Assembly (NCBI GenBank): GCA_019753155.1 | Contig: JAIELG010000017.1 | Location: 49,576-113,575, forward strand | DNA: 64,000 nt | DNA from: Burkholderiales bacterium | GTDB taxonomy: Bacteria; Pseudomonadota; Gammaproteobacteria; Burkholderiales; JABEVD01 | Direction of reading: 5' to 3' | Shown: positions 22,479 to 31,231 of the stretch, piece by piece | How the letters are laid out: every line of letters starts with the position of its first letter | Position numbering within the stretch: the stretch's first letter is position 1 | Translations under genes and position numbers: made by a program | The notes under the pieces: model-generated | The model's input: only the letters and a program-made list of their open reading frames with translations | Told to the model about the DNA's origin: nothing | Database searches by the model: none

Positions 22479-22835
22479 ATGGAATACATCTTGATTTATC
22501 GCCAACCGGCTGAAATCTACGAAATGAACAAGGATCCGATCAAAGGGCCGCCAAATCTGGCTGCGTGGCAACAATACATGGACGCCATGGGCGACGCCGG
22601 CATCCTCAGGGGCGGAAATCGGCTTGAGGCCTTATCCGGCACTTCGGTCAAAGTCGTGAACGGCAAACGCCAGGTTCAGGACGGGCCATTTGCAGACAGC
22701 AAAGACCTGCTCGGCGGATATGTGATCATTGACGCACCGACACTGGATGAAGCGCTACGTTGGGCAGAGTTCAGCCCGAGCTCCAAAACCGGATTTACCG
22801 ATGTCTACCCGGTAATGGCCATGCCGAAGAAGTGA
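22479..22835 (+). CDS. YCII-related (DGPF-type) domain protein
   Basis: 118 aa with the hallmark DGPFADSKDLLGGYVIIDAPTLDEALRWA. A strong SD (AAGGAG) lies 8 nt upstream. Confidence 0.8.
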   Translation: MEYILIYRQPAEIYEMNKDPIKGPPNLAAWQQYMDAMGDAGILRGGNRLEALSGTSVKVVNGKRQVQDGPFADSKDLLGGYVIIDAPTLDEALRWAEFSPSSKTGFTDVYPVMAMPKK

Positions 22836-24085
22836 CTCCATCCGATCACGTCCATGCCGCCGCCGAAATGGCGGCGCGCCAAAGCTATGGCAAACTCCTG
22901 GCATGGCTGTCGTGGCAATGGCGGAACGTCGGCGCGGCAGAAGATGCGCTGTCGGAAGCTTTTGCGTCAGCACTTAAACATTGGCCACGAGACGGGGTTC
23001 CCGTGTCTCCCGAAGCATGGTTATTGACGGCTGCCAGGCGAAACCTGTTAATGGCTGCACGACGTCAACGCTTGGAAGACGACCCGCGCGTCTTGATGCT
23101 CCTGCCCGATTTGACGGCAGAGCCCGTCGATATGCAGACCATTCCAGACGAACGTCTGCGTTTGTTGTTTGTTTGCGCACACCCTGCGATTGACTCATCT
23201 GTGCATACTGCGCTCATGCTGCAACTTGTGCTGGGTATCGATGCGGCGCGCATTGCAAATGCATTTTTGTTAAGCCCGGCTGCGTTGAGCAAACGATTGA
23301 CGCGCGCAAAGGCAAAAATCCGCGATGCGGGCATTCCGTTCAGCGAACCCGAACCAGGCGAATTGGGAACAAGGATCGGAGCCGTACTCGAAGCCCTATA
23401 TGGCGCATACACCGTCAACGATTCCACAATCCTCGATGTCGAAGCGGATGATCTGGCGGACGAGGCGCTGTTTCTCGCACAGCTGATGAGCGAACAGATT
23501 GAGGGTGACGCGGAAGTATACGGACTTTACGCATTGCTGTTGTATTGCGAATCGAGAAGACGCGCCCGATTCGATGAGGCCGGAACCTTCGTCCCGCTGG
23601 ACGAACAGGCGCACAGCCTCTGGCGCAATGACTTCATCCATAAAGCCGAATTCAATCTGTCCAGGGCAGCAAAATTAAAGCAGGTAGGGCCGTATCAAAT
23701 CGAAGCAGCGATACAGGCAGCGCATATGCAAGGCGTTCTGGATCAGAATACGCCATGGCGGGAAATTGCCATGCTCTACGAACAGTTGCTTTTTTTGGGG
23801 CCCACCGTTGGCGCAAAAATCGGACATGCCATCGCAGTGGCCCGAGCGACCGAAAACCCCGCCCAAGGTATGGAACTCCTGGATGCGATCCAAACCTCCG
23901 GCGTGGCAGGCCATCAACCATGGTGGGCCGCGCGCGCCAGCCTGCTTGCGATGATGGGCCGCAAAAAGGAAGCCGAAACAGCGTACACGAGGGCGATTGC
24001 ACTCACCAGAAACGAGGCTGTTCAAACGTGGCTCAAACGAAAGCGTGAGAAACTTTCGCTGTCAAGTTCAAACAATCAAAATTGA
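22832..24085 (+). CDS. ECF-like RNA polymerase sigma factor with long C-terminal (TPR-like) extension (COG4941-type)
   Basis: Region-2-like AEDALSEAFASALKHWPRDGVP.SPEAWLLTAARRN..D..RR and region-4-like LSPAALSKRLTRAKAKIR, followed by a ~200-aa helical extension. Start proposed at GTG 22832, overlapping the YCII stop (GTGA). The track ATG at 22760 lies inside the YCII gene. Confidence 0.75.
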   Translation: MTPSDHVHAAAEMAARQSYGKLLAWLSWQWRNVGAAEDALSEAFASALKHWPRDGVPVSPEAWLLTAARRNLLMAARRQRLEDDPRVLMLLPDLTAEPVDMQTIPDERLRLLFVCAHPAIDSSVHTALMLQLVLGIDAARIANAFLLSPAALSKRLTRAKAKIRDAGIPFSEPEPGELGTRIGAVLEALYGAYTVNDSTILDVEADDLADEALFLAQLMSEQIEGDAEVYGLYALLLYCESRRRARFDEAGTFVPLDEQAHSLWRNDFIHKAEFNLSRAAKLKQVGPYQIEAAIQAAHMQGVLDQNTPWREIAMLYEQLLFLGPTVGAKIGHAIAVARATENPAQGMELLDAIQTSGVAGHQPWWAARASLLAMMGRKKEAETAYTRAIALTRNEAVQTWLKRKREKLSLSSSNNQN

Positions 24086-24844: not shown

Positions 24845-24935
24845 TTCCAAAAAGCATCTTAAGATGAAATGACTCTTCGACGGGCGCATGCGCCTTTTGA
24901 GGAAAATCCATCACCATTTCCAAAGGAAAAGTTCA

Positions 24936-27900
24936 ATGATGCTCGGCGATCCCCGCACCGACGGCAGCTATGTATCCATGGCCGTGGACTCCCTGTCCTG
25001 GGCGAAGACCAGCGCCGCCGCCGGCAGCTTGTTTACCGCGACGACGCAGGTTTCGGTCGATGCCTGGATAAGATTCAATGGGCTTCCTGCCAATACGGCG
25101 GCAATTGCCCAGGCGGGAGTATTCGCTTTCGGCAGCCAGGGAACCTCGGTCTATTTCCAATTCAACGGATTGCCGATCGTCCTGTCCGATCCGACTCAGG
25201 CGCAACTCCTGGACGACCACTGGCACTATATATGCGCCACCTTCGACGGCAGCATGGTGCGGCTCTATATCGACGGCCAGTTCAATACCGGCCAAAGCTG
25301 CATGGGGCAGGTGCCTATAAGCACCAATCCCGTGTTGATCGGCCAAGGGGTCCAGGGGCTGGTGCGTCGTGTTCGCATCTATAAAACGAACCTGAGCGCT
25401 GCCGCCGTGCTGAACAACATGTATGGAACACCCGCTAGCGGGACTTTGGCTGCGGATTTCGACTTCAGCGTCAATCCGCCGGTGGACCGGGGTCCGTCGG
25501 CCTATCCCGTCAGCCTGCAGAACAATGCGATCATGCTCAAGGTTTCGCCCGCCGTGTCCATGGGAACGACTGGATTTGTGCGGCCCATGGGAGACAAGGG
25601 CATCAATCCGGGCGGCGCGCAGGTCGACCCCTATACGGTGCAGGCCTGGGTCTACGTCACATCCGCCGTCAATCCGGTTCAAGCCATTTTCGTCAACAGC
25701 GATCTCATGATGGACACCGGAATGGCGCTGTATTTGCAGTACGATGCGACGGCCTCCGCGTTTCGTCTGGTTTCGCAGCGTGGCTCCAGCGGCCAAACGC
25801 TGACTTCGATGGGAACGATCCCGGCGGGGGTCTGGGCCAATGTTGCTACCGCTTTCGACGGAACAACGCTTTCTCTCTACCTCAATGGCGTCCTGGACAG
25901 CACCAAGGCCTGCCCCCCCATACCGCTTTACAGTCAGGTCGGCGATCTGTTGATCGGGGCAGCCATCGCCCAGGGCATTCCATCCGGAGCCACGACCCTG
26001 CAGGGATTCATCCGTGAAGTGGATGTCTGGTCGAGAGCCTTGAGCGCCACCGAAATCGCAAGCTTCATGGCCAACCCCCCGGACGTTCAGTCGCCGGGGC
26101 TGCAAGGCGCCTACGTCTTCACCAACTCGCCGGCGCGCAATCAGGCCAACGGCCACCCGATCGGCCTGGCGGAAGGGGCGGTGCTGTCGGGCCAGCTCGG
26201 CGCGGCGCCGCCAACCTCAACCGAGATGGTCAGGGCGGAAGCCCCTCTGCCAGAAATGGGACTTGATCCGGAAAAAATGGCATCCATCCGTGCCGGGATC
26301 GACTTCTCCGCCCTGCACAAGGAAAACGAGCGAGCCTTCGACGAAGCCATGGCTGACGACATGGCCGCCTTCGGCGATCCGAAGGACAAGGTCCGAATCA
26401 AGGAAGCCTGGGCCGAGGCGAGGCGGAAACTGGTGGAAAATCCGACCGCCCTCCCGTTTCTGACGACGCATCACATCATTGACGGCGAACGCTTGCTCAT
26501 CGTCCACCGGCCAGGCGGCTCCTACGTCGCCTATCGGGCACCCGCCAATGCCATCGATGACTGCACGATGTGGAAGGTGCGCCTAGTATTCACCTTGGTT
26601 GCCGGAGCGATCGACGCCTTCACTGGCGTTGGCAGCACTTTGGGCGACAAAGCAATCGTTTTTATCGGACGGGTGCTGACGATCCCGGCTATCGCCGCAC
26701 AAATGGCCAATGGCATAAAGATGACTGGTGCCGCGGTCTTCACGTTCTTGAGCCTGCTGTATACCCAAGGATTGCTCAGACCGCTCATCCTGTTGTTGAT
26801 TGATGTCGGCTTCTGGACGCTCATCCGAGTCGTTGCCAATCTGTTGCTGATTGCGGCCGGCATCGGGACGGTTCGTATCGTGGCATCGCTGGCCGCGACT
26901 GCAGTCACTTTCATCACCGTCTATTTGAGCAAGCCGGCAAGCTGCGATCCGCTTCCCACGGTGACGCTGGCGAGCCTCGCTTTCGACTACGATCCGACGG
27001 GAGCTTCCGTCGAAGCCTTGACGATCCGGCGCAATTTCGGGACCGACGTGAATGTTCCGGAATGGATCCCCGGCAAAACGGTTGCGGCAGATTCGCCCTG
27101 CGCCTATGCCTATTCCACGGTGTCCGGAGCCACGCCTAAGATTCAGGTAGTTGTCAACATTCCGGCGCCGACGACTCATGCAGTCAAGATTCAAGCCACG
27201 GGAGGCGGCATATTGGGGTCAATCGACCCGATCACAGTCAATTTCGGCGGTGTAATCAGCGCCACCATCACACTGCCTCTTTCGCATCATACGCTGGCGA
27301 GCGGGGGCGTGCAAAGGCAGGACGTGACTTGGACCTGGCAGTATCAGGTGGATGGAGGATCCTGGATCACCATGGCCACCAGCAATCACCGTGTCTATAT
27401 CATCCTCGCGACCCCGACACAGCCCTGGCAACAGGGGGCCAATCGTGGCAACCAGCAGCTGCCCTGGACGGATGTTCTGGACTATGCCTGCGTATGGACG
27501 GCTGGAGCCAAAACAAGCGACCAGGTCATGAATCTCGTCACTACCCAGGTGAATTCCAATATCAAACTTGTCTACGACACCACAAGCGGCGCTTCCTTTT
27601 ACACGGCGGAAAGCGGTAATCTTTCGCGCTTCCTTTGCGGTCTTTTCGTTGACTATCTGAAAACCGGAAAAGGAAACGGCAAGATCGTCAACTGCACCGA
27701 TTGCGCCACGATCGTCACCAGCTTCGCCAATATACTGGGCTGCAATGCCTCCGAATCGATAATGACCGACAGCCCAAATGTGCATGGGTTCTTGTGCAAC
27801 CAAATCCTGGCCATAGGCACGACCACTTGGTCTATACCATTCCCGACTTCTCCCAATCCTGGAGTTTTTAGTTACCATGAAGTGGCTTGGACTGGCGCGG

Positions 27901-28178
27901 GTTCTTCACTGTCAGACCCGCTTTATGATGCCTGTCTTCAATACGACACCGGCCCAAATCCTTGGGGAACAGGACCGCATACTGCAGGACTGCCTTTGAA
28001 GGTCCCCTTTACCACGAATCTGGCTCCGATCCCGTCACCCTATGTTCCCATACCCACGCCCTATACCGGCACAAGCTATAGGGAACGCCTAGCGGCCAAT
28101 ACTGCTGCCGGAATACCGAGATGCATCCCTTTTGGCCAGTGGCCCAACACCAATTCTGGCCGCAGGCCTGTCCTTTAG
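24936..28178 (+). CDS. Large multidomain protein of unknown function: 2x LamG-like (concanavalin-A-like lectin) domains, central 4-5 TM-helix block, C-terminal beta-sandwich plus transglutaminase-like Cys/His/Asp domain
   Basis: 1080 aa from ATG 24936 (SD AAGGAAAAG; the track start 24888 adds 16 aa). The two LamG signatures are VSVDAWIRF...HWHYICATFDGSMVRLYIDG...VRRVRIYKTNLSAAAV and YTVQAWVYV...VWANVATAFDGTTLSLYLNG...FIREVDVWSRALSATEI. The hydrophobic block lies at 26568-26930. The C-terminal motifs are NCTDCATIVTSFANILG...FSYHEVAW...LYDAC. No N-terminal signal peptide is evident. Confidence 0.85.
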   Translation: MMLGDPRTDGSYVSMAVDSLSWAKTSAAAGSLFTATTQVSVDAWIRFNGLPANTAAIAQAGVFAFGSQGTSVYFQFNGLPIVLSDPTQAQLLDDHWHYICATFDGSMVRLYIDGQFNTGQSCMGQVPISTNPVLIGQGVQGLVRRVRIYKTNLSAAAVLNNMYGTPASGTLAADFDFSVNPPVDRGPSAYPVSLQNNAIMLKVSPAVSMGTTGFVRPMGDKGINPGGAQVDPYTVQAWVYVTSAVNPVQAIFVNSDLMMDTGMALYLQYDATASAFRLVSQRGSSGQTLTSMGTIPAGVWANVATAFDGTTLSLYLNGVLDSTKACPPIPLYSQVGDLLIGAAIAQGIPSGATTLQGFIREVDVWSRALSATEIASFMANPPDVQSPGLQGAYVFTNSPARNQANGHPIGLAEGAVLSGQLGAAPPTSTEMVRAEAPLPEMGLDPEKMASIRAGIDFSALHKENERAFDEAMADDMAAFGDPKDKVRIKEAWAEARRKLVENPTALPFLTTHHIIDGERLLIVHRPGGSYVAYRAPANAIDDCTMWKVRLVFTLVAGAIDAFTGVGSTLGDKAIVFIGRVLTIPAIAAQMANGIKMTGAAVFTFLSLLYTQGLLRPLILLLIDVGFWTLIRVVANLLLIAAGIGTVRIVASLAATAVTFITVYLSKPASCDPLPTVTLASLAFDYDPTGASVEALTIRRNFGTDVNVPEWIPGKTVAADSPCAYAYSTVSGATPKIQVVVNIPAPTTHAVKIQATGGGILGSIDPITVNFGGVISATITLPLSHHTLASGGVQRQDVTWTWQYQVDGGSWITMATSNHRVYIILATPTQPWQQGANRGNQQLPWTDVLDYACVWTAGAKTSDQVMNLVTTQVNSNIKLVYDTTSGASFYTAESGNLSRFLCGLFVDYLKTGKGNGKIVNCTDCATIVTSFANILGCNASESIMTDSPNVHGFLCNQILAIGTTTWSIPFPTSPNPGVFSYHEVAWTGAGSSLSDPLYDACLQYDTGPNPWGTGPHTAGLPLKVPFTTNLAPIPSPYVPIPTPYTGTSYRERLAANTAAGIPRCIPFGQWPNTNSGRRPVL

Positions 28179-28190
28179 GAGGAACCCCAA

Positions 28191-28712
28191 ATGGATCGAC
28201 AAGCCTGGCTTGATGGCGTGAAACAACGCTTCGGGTTTGATACTTGGCCCCGACGCACGGGAGCAATGGCCCTGAGCCGGACACAGGGCTTTGTTTTAAA
28301 TTCGGGAACCTGGGCTGATACTTGGGTTCTTGAGCAACGCCTTCCCCACGGCGACTCCGGTTATGCCGATTATTTTCATCATACCGAGAATTCCAACCAA
28401 CGTATCATGGTTCGCATATCCGAATATTCAAGCCACGAAGCGGCATTGGAAGCTATGCTGTCCATCCTGTCCCAATCCATGACCGTAACTTTGCCCAGGC
28501 TCGACGAAAGGGGAGTGATGGTCGGCGATGTGGGATTTTGCGGTTATGGTGAAGACATCCATAGCCTGGTTTTCGTCCGCCACAATATCCTGATCGACAT
28601 CCGCAGCATCGGCGACCAAGCGGTTGCCGTCGTGGATCCGGCAAAGCAGGTGGATGCGCAAATTCAAACCGCCGTATCGCAGGAAGACCTGTCCAAGGAG
28701 AAGAAACAATGA
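28191..28712 (+). CDS. Hypothetical protein (173 aa), second gene of the LamG operon
   Basis: A strong SD (TAGGAGGA) lies 9 nt upstream, and the gene starts 13 nt after the upstream stop. I recognise no family. No signal peptide or TM segment is evident. Confidence 0.7.
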   Translation: MDRQAWLDGVKQRFGFDTWPRRTGAMALSRTQGFVLNSGTWADTWVLEQRLPHGDSGYADYFHHTENSNQRIMVRISEYSSHEAALEAMLSILSQSMTVTLPRLDERGVMVGDVGFCGYGEDIHSLVFVRHNILIDIRSIGDQAVAVVDPAKQVDAQIQTAVSQEDLSKEKKQ

Positions 28713-29758
28713 ATGCCATGAAGCCGTTCGCCGCCAATGCCGCCCAGTACAATGATTTGTTCGTTCGAGACAATTTTTCCGATACGGGCACTTATCCTTC
28801 CACCGGCAATCCCTGCCAATCGCCCGACATCATCCCGTACCAAAGCGGAACCTTGTCCTGGGCGACCGCCAATTCGACCTACAACGGCCCTGACCAAGGA
28901 TTGGCGATCATCAACGGCGGGGTCAACAACATCTACGTCCGCGCCAAGAACCTGAATACGGTCGCAGGGGCGGGGGCGGCCAACCTTTATTACGCCAACG
29001 CCTCCCTGTTCCTGCTCCCGAATACCTGGACTCAAATCTATAGCGCCGGTGGCGCAGGCTCTTTGCAGTTCGTCGACGGAACCGGCAATACCGCCATCGC
29101 CGCCGGCGGCATTGCGATCAGCAATCCGTCTTTTCTGCTGACCGGATTGCCGGCAGGCCCTCACTATTGCCTGATCGCAGTGGTTCAGACCGCCGCGCAT
29201 CCCGTCACCGTGCCGACAAGTTTTCCGACCAATGCCGCCTTCGTTCAGTGGGTGCAGAACAACCCCGCGGTGGGCTGGCGCAACATCTTCTATCAGCCCA
29301 ACACTTCCGTCCAACTGGTGCGAACCTTCAATTTCGCCAGTGTCAACCCGACCAGCGCCTATTTCCATTTCCGGATCCTGGGGCGTGGTTTTGTCACCGG
29401 GACAGGCATCAACGCCCAATGCACGGATCAGTCCTGCCCGATCAACCAGAACATGACGCTGCCTGCGCCCGATATAAACGGCAATCAGATCACCGGTTTC
29501 GATGTGAGCGTTCCGGGAAACTTCAGCGGCAACCTGGTCATCACCGCCACTTCGCCTGGCGGTCCTTTTCCTGTCGGCGCGACCCTGACGGTCACTTATT
29601 ATCAATATCCAAGCGCTGAAGACGAACTCGACCTGGCCGTGGCCGGAATCTTCACTGTGGCGAAAGAGGCCGATCCTGCCCGTTATGCGGCGATGTTGAT
29701 TCAAATCGGCGAATGCACGATCGGCATCACGAACAATCCGGCGCAAGCGGATCTTTGA
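28709..29758 (+). CDS. Hypothetical protein (349 aa), third gene of the LamG operon; Gly/Asn/Thr-rich, probably all-beta
   Basis: ATGA overlap with the upstream stop, and SD AAGGAGAAG. The motif string FVRDNFSDTGTYPSTGN..QSPDIIP ... NNIYVRAKNL ... GPHYCLIAVV ... NNPAVGWRNI resembles, from memory, a beta-sandwich module seen in some secreted peptidase-associated proteins. This is not verified. Confidence 0.7.
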   Translation: MNAMKPFAANAAQYNDLFVRDNFSDTGTYPSTGNPCQSPDIIPYQSGTLSWATANSTYNGPDQGLAIINGGVNNIYVRAKNLNTVAGAGAANLYYANASLFLLPNTWTQIYSAGGAGSLQFVDGTGNTAIAAGGIAISNPSFLLTGLPAGPHYCLIAVVQTAAHPVTVPTSFPTNAAFVQWVQNNPAVGWRNIFYQPNTSVQLVRTFNFASVNPTSAYFHFRILGRGFVTGTGINAQCTDQSCPINQNMTLPAPDINGNQITGFDVSVPGNFSGNLVITATSPGGPFPVGATLTVTYYQYPSAEDELDLAVAGIFTVAKEADPARYAAMLIQIGECTIGITNNPAQADL

Positions 29759-29777: not shown

Positions 29778-30902
29778 TTATTCGATGACGACCGGCGCGA
29801 AGCCGCCGCCTGTCGTTCTGAAATTGGTGGTCTGACCCTGATAGAGCCTCGCCGCAAGAAGCTGGATTCGTCCCTTGTAGGCAAAATTGCGGTAATCGTA
29901 CTTCATGCCCTCGATTTCAGGAGGCGGCACGAACTCCTGGGCGACATAAGGGCCTTTCAGGATTTCCTCCCATACCCTTTTCGTCAGCTTTTCCCCCCGG
30001 TAAACCGCTTTCGAAGCGTACCCCGACCCCGGCTTGAAAAAAAGCCTGCGCCGCTCCCGCCACAATTCGTCCGGATCCTCGTTTTCCACGATGCGGGTTT
30101 TCGCGATCCCGCCCAGCAGCAATTCGACGCTTGCATCGGAAAGTCCGAAACCGACCAGGCTCGCCGGATCGGTCAATACCGAAAGGTTGCGCTTGTCCGC
30201 AAAGAGCGCATGCGCCCTGGGGTGCGGCGTCAACACCACCGCGCCCGCAAGATAAGCTGCTTTCAATGCCGGATGCGCTTCGAGAGAAAAGTCGGTCAGC
30301 CTGTTGTAGACGAGATCGACCCGGATATCGTCGTGATAAAGGACGCCATCCCTGAATTCGAGATCTTTCGCTTCGGCAATCACGGCGGAAATCGCGTGCT
30401 TTACGAACAGGTTCCTGAAGAGGACGAATTCGGGATAAAGGAATTGGAAAAAACAATCGTCGTCGACGATCGCAACATGGCTCAGTTTCCTTCCGCCCCT
30501 GACCAGGGACCATTCCTCCATGAACATGTCGAAAAAGGCTTCCTCCGCATTGCCCGACTCCCCCCATGCCCTCGCAAGCAACGCATTGAGGTAAGCGCCC
30601 CCTGCATTGGTATTGATTTCGATCAGCCTGGGGCCGCTCTCGCCGATATGAAAATCATATCCGAAGAAAACGCCGCGCGTTCCGGGATCGAATGCGGCGA
30701 TGGAAGGCGCCCATTGCAGCACCATTTCCCTGTATCCGGGAATGGCCGCAACGGACTCGATGGCCGCAATGATTGCGGCCATCTTATCGGCATGAGTCCT
30801 GGATACCGGAACCTTGAGAGGCGAAAAAAGGTTCCCCGGTATGGAATCCGCTTCGAACTCGCCGCGGATTTTCCCGAAATCCGGAGTCAATTCGACAGCC
30901 AC
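29778..30902 (-). CDS. ATP-grasp-like protein (glutathionylspermidine-synthase / circularly permuted ATP-grasp type)
   Basis: Motifs FFGYDFHIGESGPRLIEINTNAGG, FFKPGSGYASKAVYRG and YVAQEFV resemble GSP-synthase-like ATP-grasp enzymes. The start is uncertain: GTG 30902 or TTG 30890 near the upstream stop. The track ATG at 30986 lies 100 nt inside the upstream gene. Confidence 0.55.
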   Translation of the reverse strand: MAVELTPDFGKIRGEFEADSIPGNLFSPLKVPVSRTHADKMAAIIAAIESVAAIPGYREMVLQWAPSIAAFDPGTRGVFFGYDFHIGESGPRLIEINTNAGGAYLNALLARAWGESGNAEEAFFDMFMEEWSLVRGGRKLSHVAIVDDDCFFQFLYPEFVLFRNLFVKHAISAVIAEAKDLEFRDGVLYHDDIRVDLVYNRLTDFSLEAHPALKAAYLAGAVVLTPHPRAHALFADKRNLSVLTDPASLVGFGLSDASVELLLGGIAKTRIVENEDPDELWRERRRLFFKPGSGYASKAVYRGEKLTKRVWEEILKGPYVAQEFVPPPEIEGMKYDYRNFAYKGRIQLLAARLYQGQTTNFRTTGGGFAPVVIE

Positions 30903-31231
30903 TCCTCCGCCTGATGCGGGTCGTGGTAAACCCTGATTTCGGCATCGGTGAACATGTTGGAGAGCCACGCCAGGGAACCCACCCACTCGCTATCGGTCAA
31001 AACAGCGATCTTCCCGAAGGCATAAGGGTGCGCCTTGCCATACTTGATTTCCTCCCAAACCATGTCGATGGTGTATTTCACCATTTTCGTGAGATCGAGG
31101 AGGAGATTGACCCGCCCCTTGAATTCGAGCCTGTAATTGACCTGGTCTTCGAATTCCTTGAAGTCCGACAGCGTGAATTCACCGAATACGGATGCGCACA
31201 GGCGGCTTTCGTCATGTTCTATCGTAATCAT
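30887..31231 (-). CDS. STAS/SpoIIAA-like small protein (DUF3478-type)
   Basis: 114 aa in which G.F...DF..FE......EF.G.VNLL.DL.....YT...W.E......H...F.KIAV..D..W matches the SpoIIAA-like family pattern. ATGA overlap with the rlmB stop. Confidence 0.6.

Follow-up and report, generated by a model that had tools for sequence, protein, structure and literature searches.

A predicted membrane-tethered Cys-His-Asp module of the transglutaminase superfamily and its two partner genes in a Burkholderiales bacterium

The window analyzed was a stretch of 64,000 nucleotides from a Burkholderiales bacterium (assembly GCA_019753155.1, contig JAIELG010000017.1, positions 49,576 to 113,575 of the forward strand), in which three plus-strand genes, called genes 1, 2, and 3 below, follow one another. 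We consider it highly probable that the gene 1 product ends in a membrane-tethered, two-domain Cys-His-Asp module of the transglutaminase superfamily, which would use thioester chemistry and have the products of genes 2 and 3 as partners. The structure model supports a predicted beta-sandwich followed by an alpha/beta core at positions 26955-28175 of the window, in the order found in the first two domains of animal transglutaminases. The original prediction, made from the letters and their open reading frames, had read the region as a transglutaminase-fold enzyme with a transglutaminase/papain-like Cys-His-Asp arrangement; that reading was supported by the fold match, by the placement of the three residues on secondary structure, and by their conservation. 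The module is treated here as a new family inside the superfamily, neither a PF01841 nor a full animal-type member, because a PF01841 match and the C-terminal barrels of the animal enzymes are both absent.

Predicted fold and conserved residues of the C-terminal module

The gene 1 reading frame, the two domains of the module, and the residues discussed below are located as follows.

24888..28178, + strand: gene 1 open reading frame, 1096 residues as the longest reading frame, 1080 if the start is the ATG at 24936
26955..27404, + strand: beta-sandwich domain that opens the transglutaminase-like module, residues 690-839 (all-beta by DSSP, fragment residues 1-150)
27405..28175, + strand: predicted alpha/beta transglutaminase-like catalytic core, residues 840-1096 (AlphaFold2 model and Foldseek matches in PDB)
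27426..27428, + strand: Trp847 codon, invariant in 259 of 259 family proteins
27693..27695, + strand: Cys936 codon (TGC), predicted nucleophile, at the start of the catalytic helix, motif N-C-x-D-C-A
27702..27704, + strand: Cys939 codon (TGC), second conserved Cys, one helical turn below Cys936 and not strictly required
27876..27878, + strand: His997 codon (CAT), predicted to act as general base, opening the strand HEVAWT
27927..27929, + strand: Asp1014 codon (GAT), predicted third triad member, immediately behind the next strand after that of His997

Residue numbers are counted from the start of the longest reading frame; counted from the ATG at 24936, all are 16 lower. An identical database protein (P0002) has 1080 residues and starts at that ATG.

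The last 407 residues (690-1096) were modeled with AlphaFold2 from a 72-sequence alignment, and the model reached a mean predicted local distance difference test score (pLDDT) of 95.6 and a predicted template modeling score (pTM) of 0.94. Its secondary structure, assigned with DSSP, is all-beta over fragment residues 1-150 and alpha/beta over the remainder. The Ig-like or beta-sandwich module that the original prediction had placed at 26960-27330 is thus real and slightly longer than claimed, the all-beta part running from 26955 to 27404. A Foldseek search of the model against PDB gave 67 matches at E ≤ 1e-3, and all 50 matches listed were animal-type transglutaminases (TG3, factor XIIIa, TG2, protein 4.2, and sea bream TGase). 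The listed matches had a probability of 1.00, E-values from 1.5e-10 to 5.8e-05, and approximately 400-440 aligned columns, so they cover both the beta-sandwich and the core; the best among them was TG3 (8rmx_A, E = 1.5e-10). The viral fold search in BFVD returned partial matches only (approximately 100-110 aligned columns), which we read as the beta-sandwich part of the model.

In the same model, Cys936 is the very first residue of the helix at fragment residues 247-259, His997 opens the strand at fragment residues 308-313, and Asp1014 stands directly after the strand at fragment residues 322-324. The codons of Cys936, Cys939, His997, and Asp1014 all lie in frame in the reading frame 24888-28178 where the original prediction had put them, and the spacings it had given hold as well (61 residues from Cys936 to His997, 58 from Cys939 to His997, and 17 from His997 to Asp1014). 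Three features of the superfamily (Pfam clan Peptidase_CA; classification in PMC10318531), namely a papain-like alpha/beta core, the Cys-His-Asp order, and conservation of the residues, were found in the module.

Conservation was counted in an hmmalign alignment of 259 sampled family proteins with 30-100% identity, in which gaps correspond to truncated sequences only. Cys936 was kept in 258 of the 258 sequences covering the position, His997 in 256 of 256, and Asp1014 in 254 of 255 (the remaining one has Thr). This near-absolute conservation in homologues was the check that the original prediction had proposed for the three residues. Cys939 was present in 251 of 258 covered sequences, with Thr, Ser, or Asn in the rest, and because such replacements are tolerated there, Cys936 is the candidate nucleophile. 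The position three residues before the His (Phe994, His-3) was aromatic in 252 of 256 covered sequences and Leu otherwise. Asp938, Ala940, Asn948, and Gly951 are further conserved positions. Another Asp, D1020, is also conserved, but several diverse members have Asn, Lys, or Ser in its place; Asp1014 does not vary in this way and is therefore the better triad Asp. D1020 had come into question since an extended hhalign alignment paired it with the transglutaminase Asp, and it was rejected on account of this variation and the constancy of Asp1014. Trp847 may correspond to Trp241 of TG2, the tryptophan of the core that is essential in animal transglutaminases.

Sequence comparison alone did not recover the relationship. 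PF01841 gave no match at E ≤ 10 in a Pfam scan of the gene 1 product and of 59 diverse family members. NCBIfam and a single-sequence PDB search added nothing for the C-terminal domain. An hmmsearch of PDB at E ≤ 10 found nothing with a domain-only profile (A2) and nothing for the C-terminal domain with a whole-family profile (A1). When the family was compared by hhalign with human TG2 (a query identical to 6kzb_A), 15 TG2 orthologues, and 27 bacterial PF01841 cores combined with TG2 cores, all probabilities were below 1%, the value for the combined PF01841 and TG2 core alignment being 0.3%. The profile similarity to PF01841 or PF00868 that the original prediction had proposed to look for was therefore not found by Pfam, NCBIfam, PDB hmmsearch, or hhalign. 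The top local hhalign alignment, which was not significant, nevertheless fell on the catalytic helix (CtDCAtIVsTFANiLG against C..hyA......Ra.G); it paired Cys936 with the catalytic Cys of PF01841 and TG2, and its extended form paired His997 with the catalytic His. The motif register C-x-x-(F/C)-A...G agrees with TG2 and PF01841. The helix pattern G.C..FA......R..G put forward in the original prediction was matched in part, VNCTDCATIVTSFANILG agreeing with it at the Cys, Ala, and Gly positions. As the original prediction suggested, LPWTDVLDYACVW may loosely resemble the segment ahead of the catalytic Cys of animal transglutaminases.

Hydrophobic block, partner genes, and distribution of the family

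The gene 1 product begins with two LamG domains; after a linker come the hydrophobic block, the beta-sandwich, and the transglutaminase-like core. The parts ahead of the module are the following.

24975..25427, + strand: LamG/concanavalin-like domain 1, residues approximately 30-180 (Laminin_G_3; Laminin_G_2 at residues 90-152)
25626..26060, + strand: LamG/concanavalin-like domain 2, residues 247-391 (best Pfam Laminin_G_3 stretch)
26571..26927, + strand: conserved hydrophobic block, residues 562-680, four to five predicted helices, presumed membrane anchor

Pfam recognized Laminin_G_3 in two stretches (E = 1.7e-40), these two domains (residues approximately 30-395) being its only matches, with nothing beyond residue 400. 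Domain 1 also matched the LamG modules of pappalysin and pentraxin in a PDB profile search, and domain 2 matched 4qvs_A and pappalysin-2 in PDB searches. No signal peptide was found ahead of domain 1. The hydrophobic block was delimited by a Kyte-Doolittle scan and by hydropathy and charge averaged over 85 LamG-type homologues, and its conservation backs the earlier claim that the protein is membrane-tethered. Within its helices, the charged residues D576, D639, R647, and K/R651 are conserved in the same homologues, which suggests that the block holds a functional site inside the membrane and is more than a passive anchor.

Genes 2 and 3 follow directly.

28191..28712, + strand: gene 2, 173 residues, alpha/beta with no known fold match, 12-nucleotide gap after gene 1
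28709..29758, + strand: gene 3, 349 residues, family without a known match, start overlapping the end of gene 2 by 4 nucleotides

Both genes recur beside a gene 1 homologue in five distant taxa, namely Brevundimonas, Streptomyces, Methanosarcina, an Acidobacteria metagenome-assembled genome, and Archangium, the gene order being permuted in two of the first four loci. In Archangium violaceum, the homologues of genes 2 and 3 are fused into a single 515-residue protein (L005:6435-7982); IS66 genes and WHH-toxin and SUKH-immunity genes flank that locus. A profile of gene 2 orthologues located a gene 2-like domain directly after the transglutaminase-like domain in 64 of approximately 260 sampled family proteins, two of the 64 being LamG-type proteins. 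These fusions tie gene 2 to the catalytic module by the Rosetta-stone principle. Its product is a dedicated partner of the transglutaminase-like domain, probably as a regulatory or substrate-presenting subunit. Its AlphaFold2 model is alpha/beta with a pLDDT of 94, and a fold search of PDB gave no significant match, the best being kinase N-lobes, BT_1490, and the PknH sensor domain at E ≥ 0.02.

The gene 3 product had no Pfam, NCBIfam, or PDB match, a 6-sequence profile included. Its N-terminal part contains the strictly conserved motif Y-x(5)-R-x(4)-D-x-G-x(2)-PS-x-G-x(4)-SPDII, two of its cysteines are invariant, and it has no signal peptide. Searches of the gene 1 product and its neighbors with Pfam, NCBIfam, PADLOC, and PHROGs recognized only the LamG domains, and none of the three gene products matched a PADLOC anti-phage defense model. 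Upstream of the three genes lies a sigma-factor-like gene (22760-24085; Sigma70_r2, DUF6596, and TPR), which is not conserved with them in other genomes. A 402-residue reading frame on the minus strand (29778-30986) converges on their downstream end, and it had no match in Pfam, NCBIfam, or PADLOC.

The family was searched with the C-terminal 407 residues (window positions 26955-28175) as the query. A word-indexed search gave 129 full-length relatives, and an exhaustive search gave 1341 representatives (clusters) at 50% identity. The hosts named include Sphingomonas, Brevundimonas, Pararhodospirillum, Archangium, Streptomyces, Acidobacteria, and Methanosarcina. The transglutaminase-like domain also occurs as a stand-alone protein of approximately 400 residues, its first beta-strand starting at residue 2-5, and as the N-terminal part of proteins of 550-830 residues. 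Most family members have no signal peptide. The source genome (2.66 Mb) holds one copy of the domain. The domain was absent from the eight other genomes searched in the same taxonomic family (all of one genus), and in a sample of 401 genomes from the phylum, two contained it. In Methanosarcina and Archangium, the module is flanked by transposase or integrase genes. With this patchy distribution and these flanking genes, the three genes are a rare, horizontally moving accessory module. Elsewhere in the source genome there are three ordinary PF01841 genes (G000:C1:165599-165916, G000:C6:26771-27103, and G000:C1:26900-27244), and the gene 1 product thus belongs to a family separate from PF01841. 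One of the three lies in a reading frame of approximately 684 residues, similar in length to most other PF01841 matches.

Two further contexts were found among the relatives. In P0092 and P0094, PG_binding_1 and/or OmpA domains replace the LamG and hydrophobic-block parts, and there are no hydrophobic segments. Genes of this type (L007:6001-9342 and L009:9001-11271) lie directly upstream of hub, spike, PAAR, gp25-like, and Baseplate_J genes in contractile-tail loci. Sheath and tube genes stand upstream of the relative in L007, a slot that resembles the position of a tape-measure or tail-lysin gene. The source genome has no sheath gene and no contractile system. The second context is an operon shared by four independent contigs (L008:9001-16677, L041:8001-15756, L042:8001-16487, and L043:77-7504). 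There, a fusion of the transglutaminase-like and gene 2-like domains (670-820 residues) is followed by a TPR-CHAT caspase-like protein (approximately 1120-1190 residues), a protein of approximately 212 residues with a C-terminus like that of extracytoplasmic function (ECF) sigma factors, and an anti-sigma-like membrane protein of approximately 310-345 residues. Gene 3 had been considered as a homologue of these anti-sigma-like genes and was rejected as not homologous.

Proposed mechanism and alternative explanations

From the transglutaminase-type fold we infer a thioester mechanism. The His997-Asp1014 pair would activate the thiol of Cys936 at the helix N-terminus, and the thiolate would attack the amide carbonyl of a substrate to give a thioester acyl-enzyme. 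This intermediate could then be resolved by an amine, giving a cross-link, or by water, giving deamidation or cleavage. The catalytic module, preceded by the two lectin-like LamG domains, would be tethered to the membrane by the conserved block of four to five predicted helices and would work as a unit with the 173-residue gene 2 product and, in the LamG-type version, also with the 349-residue gene 3 product. The module has about an even chance of being a glutamine-directed protein transamidase or deamidase. We lean to this reaction because the closest folds are true transglutaminases, Trp847 is invariant, and an aromatic residue occupies His-3 (Phe994). A thiol peptidase or amidase reaction has a lower but appreciable probability.

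Several points weigh against the proposed transglutaminase-superfamily enzyme. Pfam (PF01841 and PF00868), NCBIfam, PDB hmmsearch, and hhalign all miss the relationship. The Foldseek template modeling scores (TM-scores) are low (approximately 0.36) with a root-mean-square deviation of approximately 10 Å, so the global superposition is poor. There are no two C-terminal beta-barrels, and the protein ends approximately 80 residues past the catalytic Asp. Although it has no signal peptide, it begins with modules of a kind typical of the cell envelope (LamG here, PG_binding_1 and OmpA in its relatives). Both the reaction and the substrate proposed are conjectural.

The failure of every sequence-profile search is also what would be expected if the Cys...His...Asp pattern had arisen by chance in a domain unrelated to the transglutaminase/papain fold. 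This explanation is hardly credible, because a high-confidence model yields only transglutaminases among the listed matches, with E-values down to 1e-10, and because the residues are invariant and stand at canonical secondary-structure positions. It is very improbable, too, that the domain is a catalytically inert scaffold with the transglutaminase fold that serves for binding only, in the manner of erythrocyte protein 4.2 or Rad4/XPC. Protein 4.2 does appear among the Foldseek matches, and inactive members of the superfamily are known, but in these the triad is gone, whereas essentially all 259 sequences of the present family, to 30% identity, retain Cys, His, and Asp along with the surrounding motifs N-C-x-D-C-A and H-E-V-A-W.

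Two hydrolytic alternatives deserve more weight. Many prokaryotic transglutaminase-fold proteins, characterized or predicted, are peptidases (PMC10318531; PMC7159879; PMC8195603), and the operons that join fused relatives to a TPR-CHAT caspase-like protease and ECF sigma and anti-sigma proteins form a setting that suggests regulated proteolysis. A thiol protease of LapG/BTLCP or vasohibin type, which would cleave a specific protein such as the gene 3 product or a signaling partner, is accordingly the strongest competitor, although it is still the minority view. The closest folds speak against it, being those of cross-linking enzymes, with their N-terminal beta-sandwich included; moreover, the invariant Trp and the aromatic residue at His-3 recall transglutaminase features, and no cleavage substrate is indicated. 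A cell-wall-directed thiol amidase or endopeptidase (NlpC/P60-, CHAP-, or Tae-like) would instead hydrolyze bonds in peptidoglycan stem peptides, its N-terminal modules targeting envelope polymers. LamG domains are often carbohydrate binders, and the PG_binding_1/OmpA relatives P0092 and P0094 adjoin hub and baseplate genes, where wall-degrading enzymes are common. We nevertheless regard a wall enzyme as rather unlikely: no NlpC/P60, CHAP, or amidase structure was among the 50 listed Foldseek matches, and no Pfam or PHROG lysin model fell on the catalytic part (the PHROG endolysin matches of P0094 being confined to its peptidoglycan-binding region). The source genome lacks a sheath gene, and a signal peptide is absent in most family members.

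Transglutaminase-fold enzymes were already known, but this family, which comprises at least 1341 clusters at 50% identity, escapes Pfam, NCBIfam, and profile searches, and its members are annotated just as 'LamG domain-containing' or 'hypothetical'. Our literature searches found no description of it. Recognition of the family gives a testable thioester hypothesis, centered on Cys936, His997, and Asp1014, for thousands of proteins. It also connects these proteins with the gene 2-like domain as an obligate partner and ties together three otherwise unexplained contexts: the LamG membrane module, the genes upstream of contractile-tail hub and baseplate genes, and the TPR-CHAT/ECF sigma/anti-sigma operons. 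The two-domain resemblance bears on the origin of animal transglutaminases. Speculatively, this large unnamed prokaryotic family, which would keep the whole N-terminal half of animal transglutaminases and always be accompanied by the gene 2 partner domain, might be their closest prokaryotic relative or even the source lineage, or might represent a new class of regulated protein-modifying enzymes at membranes, contractile-tail baseplates, and TPR-CHAT/ECF-sigma operons.

Comparison with known systems

Animal-type transglutaminases (Transglut_N, core, and two Transglut_C domains) show, at the level of the fold, the same order of beta-sandwich and core as the gene 1 module. They also share the Cys-His-Asp order, with the Cys at a helix N-terminus, the His at the start of a strand, and the Asp ending the next strand. 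The spacing from Cys to His is similar (61 residues in the gene 1 product and 58 in TG2), whereas that from His to Asp is shorter (17 residues vs. 23 in animal transglutaminases). Animal-type enzymes carry two C-terminal beta-barrels that the gene 1 product lacks; in that position, relatives carry the fused gene 2-like domain, which is alpha/beta and not a beta-barrel. The gene 1 family is prokaryotic; the module is joined to LamG domains and a hydrophobic block and has the gene 2 partner domain, for which the animal enzymes have no counterpart. There is no detectable sequence or profile similarity between the two groups, and TM-scores are only approximately 0.36.

TgpA of Pseudomonas aeruginosa (PDB 6G49; cited in PMC10318531) is an inner-membrane PF01841 protein. 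Bacterial PF01841 proteins, TgpA included, resemble the gene 1 product in being membrane-attached with a transglutaminase-fold Cys-His-Asp domain. The two groups have a similar His-to-Asp spacing (16-17 residues) and have in common the helix motif C-x-x-(F/Y/C)-(A/S)...G. They differ in the flanking domains, which are LamG in the gene 1 product and DUF3488 and DUF4129 in the PF01841/TgpA type. The gene 1 family has a beta-sandwich of its own, unlike the PF01841/TgpA type, and PF01841 itself does not match it. BTLCP/LapG, the vasohibins, and PNGase belong to the same superfamily and share the thioester chemistry with a possible hydrolytic outcome; none was among the 50 listed Foldseek matches, and their domain architectures and partners are different.

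Transglutaminase-like toxins and peptidases have been described in extracellular contractile injection systems (eCIS) and in conflict systems (PMC11297309, PMC8195603, PMC7159879). Among them, EAT14 is an eCIS-associated toxin with DUF4157 and a transglutaminase-like domain, and it resembles the microbial transglutaminase 5m6q (PMC11297309). Like the relatives P0092 and P0094, EAT14 has a transglutaminase-like Cys-His-Asp domain tied to contractile injection systems. However, EAT14 is a downstream cargo toxin, whereas the P0092 and P0094 genes lie inside the tail cluster, just upstream of the hub and baseplate genes, and the enzyme that EAT14 resembles is microbial, whereas the gene 1 family resembles animal-type enzymes.

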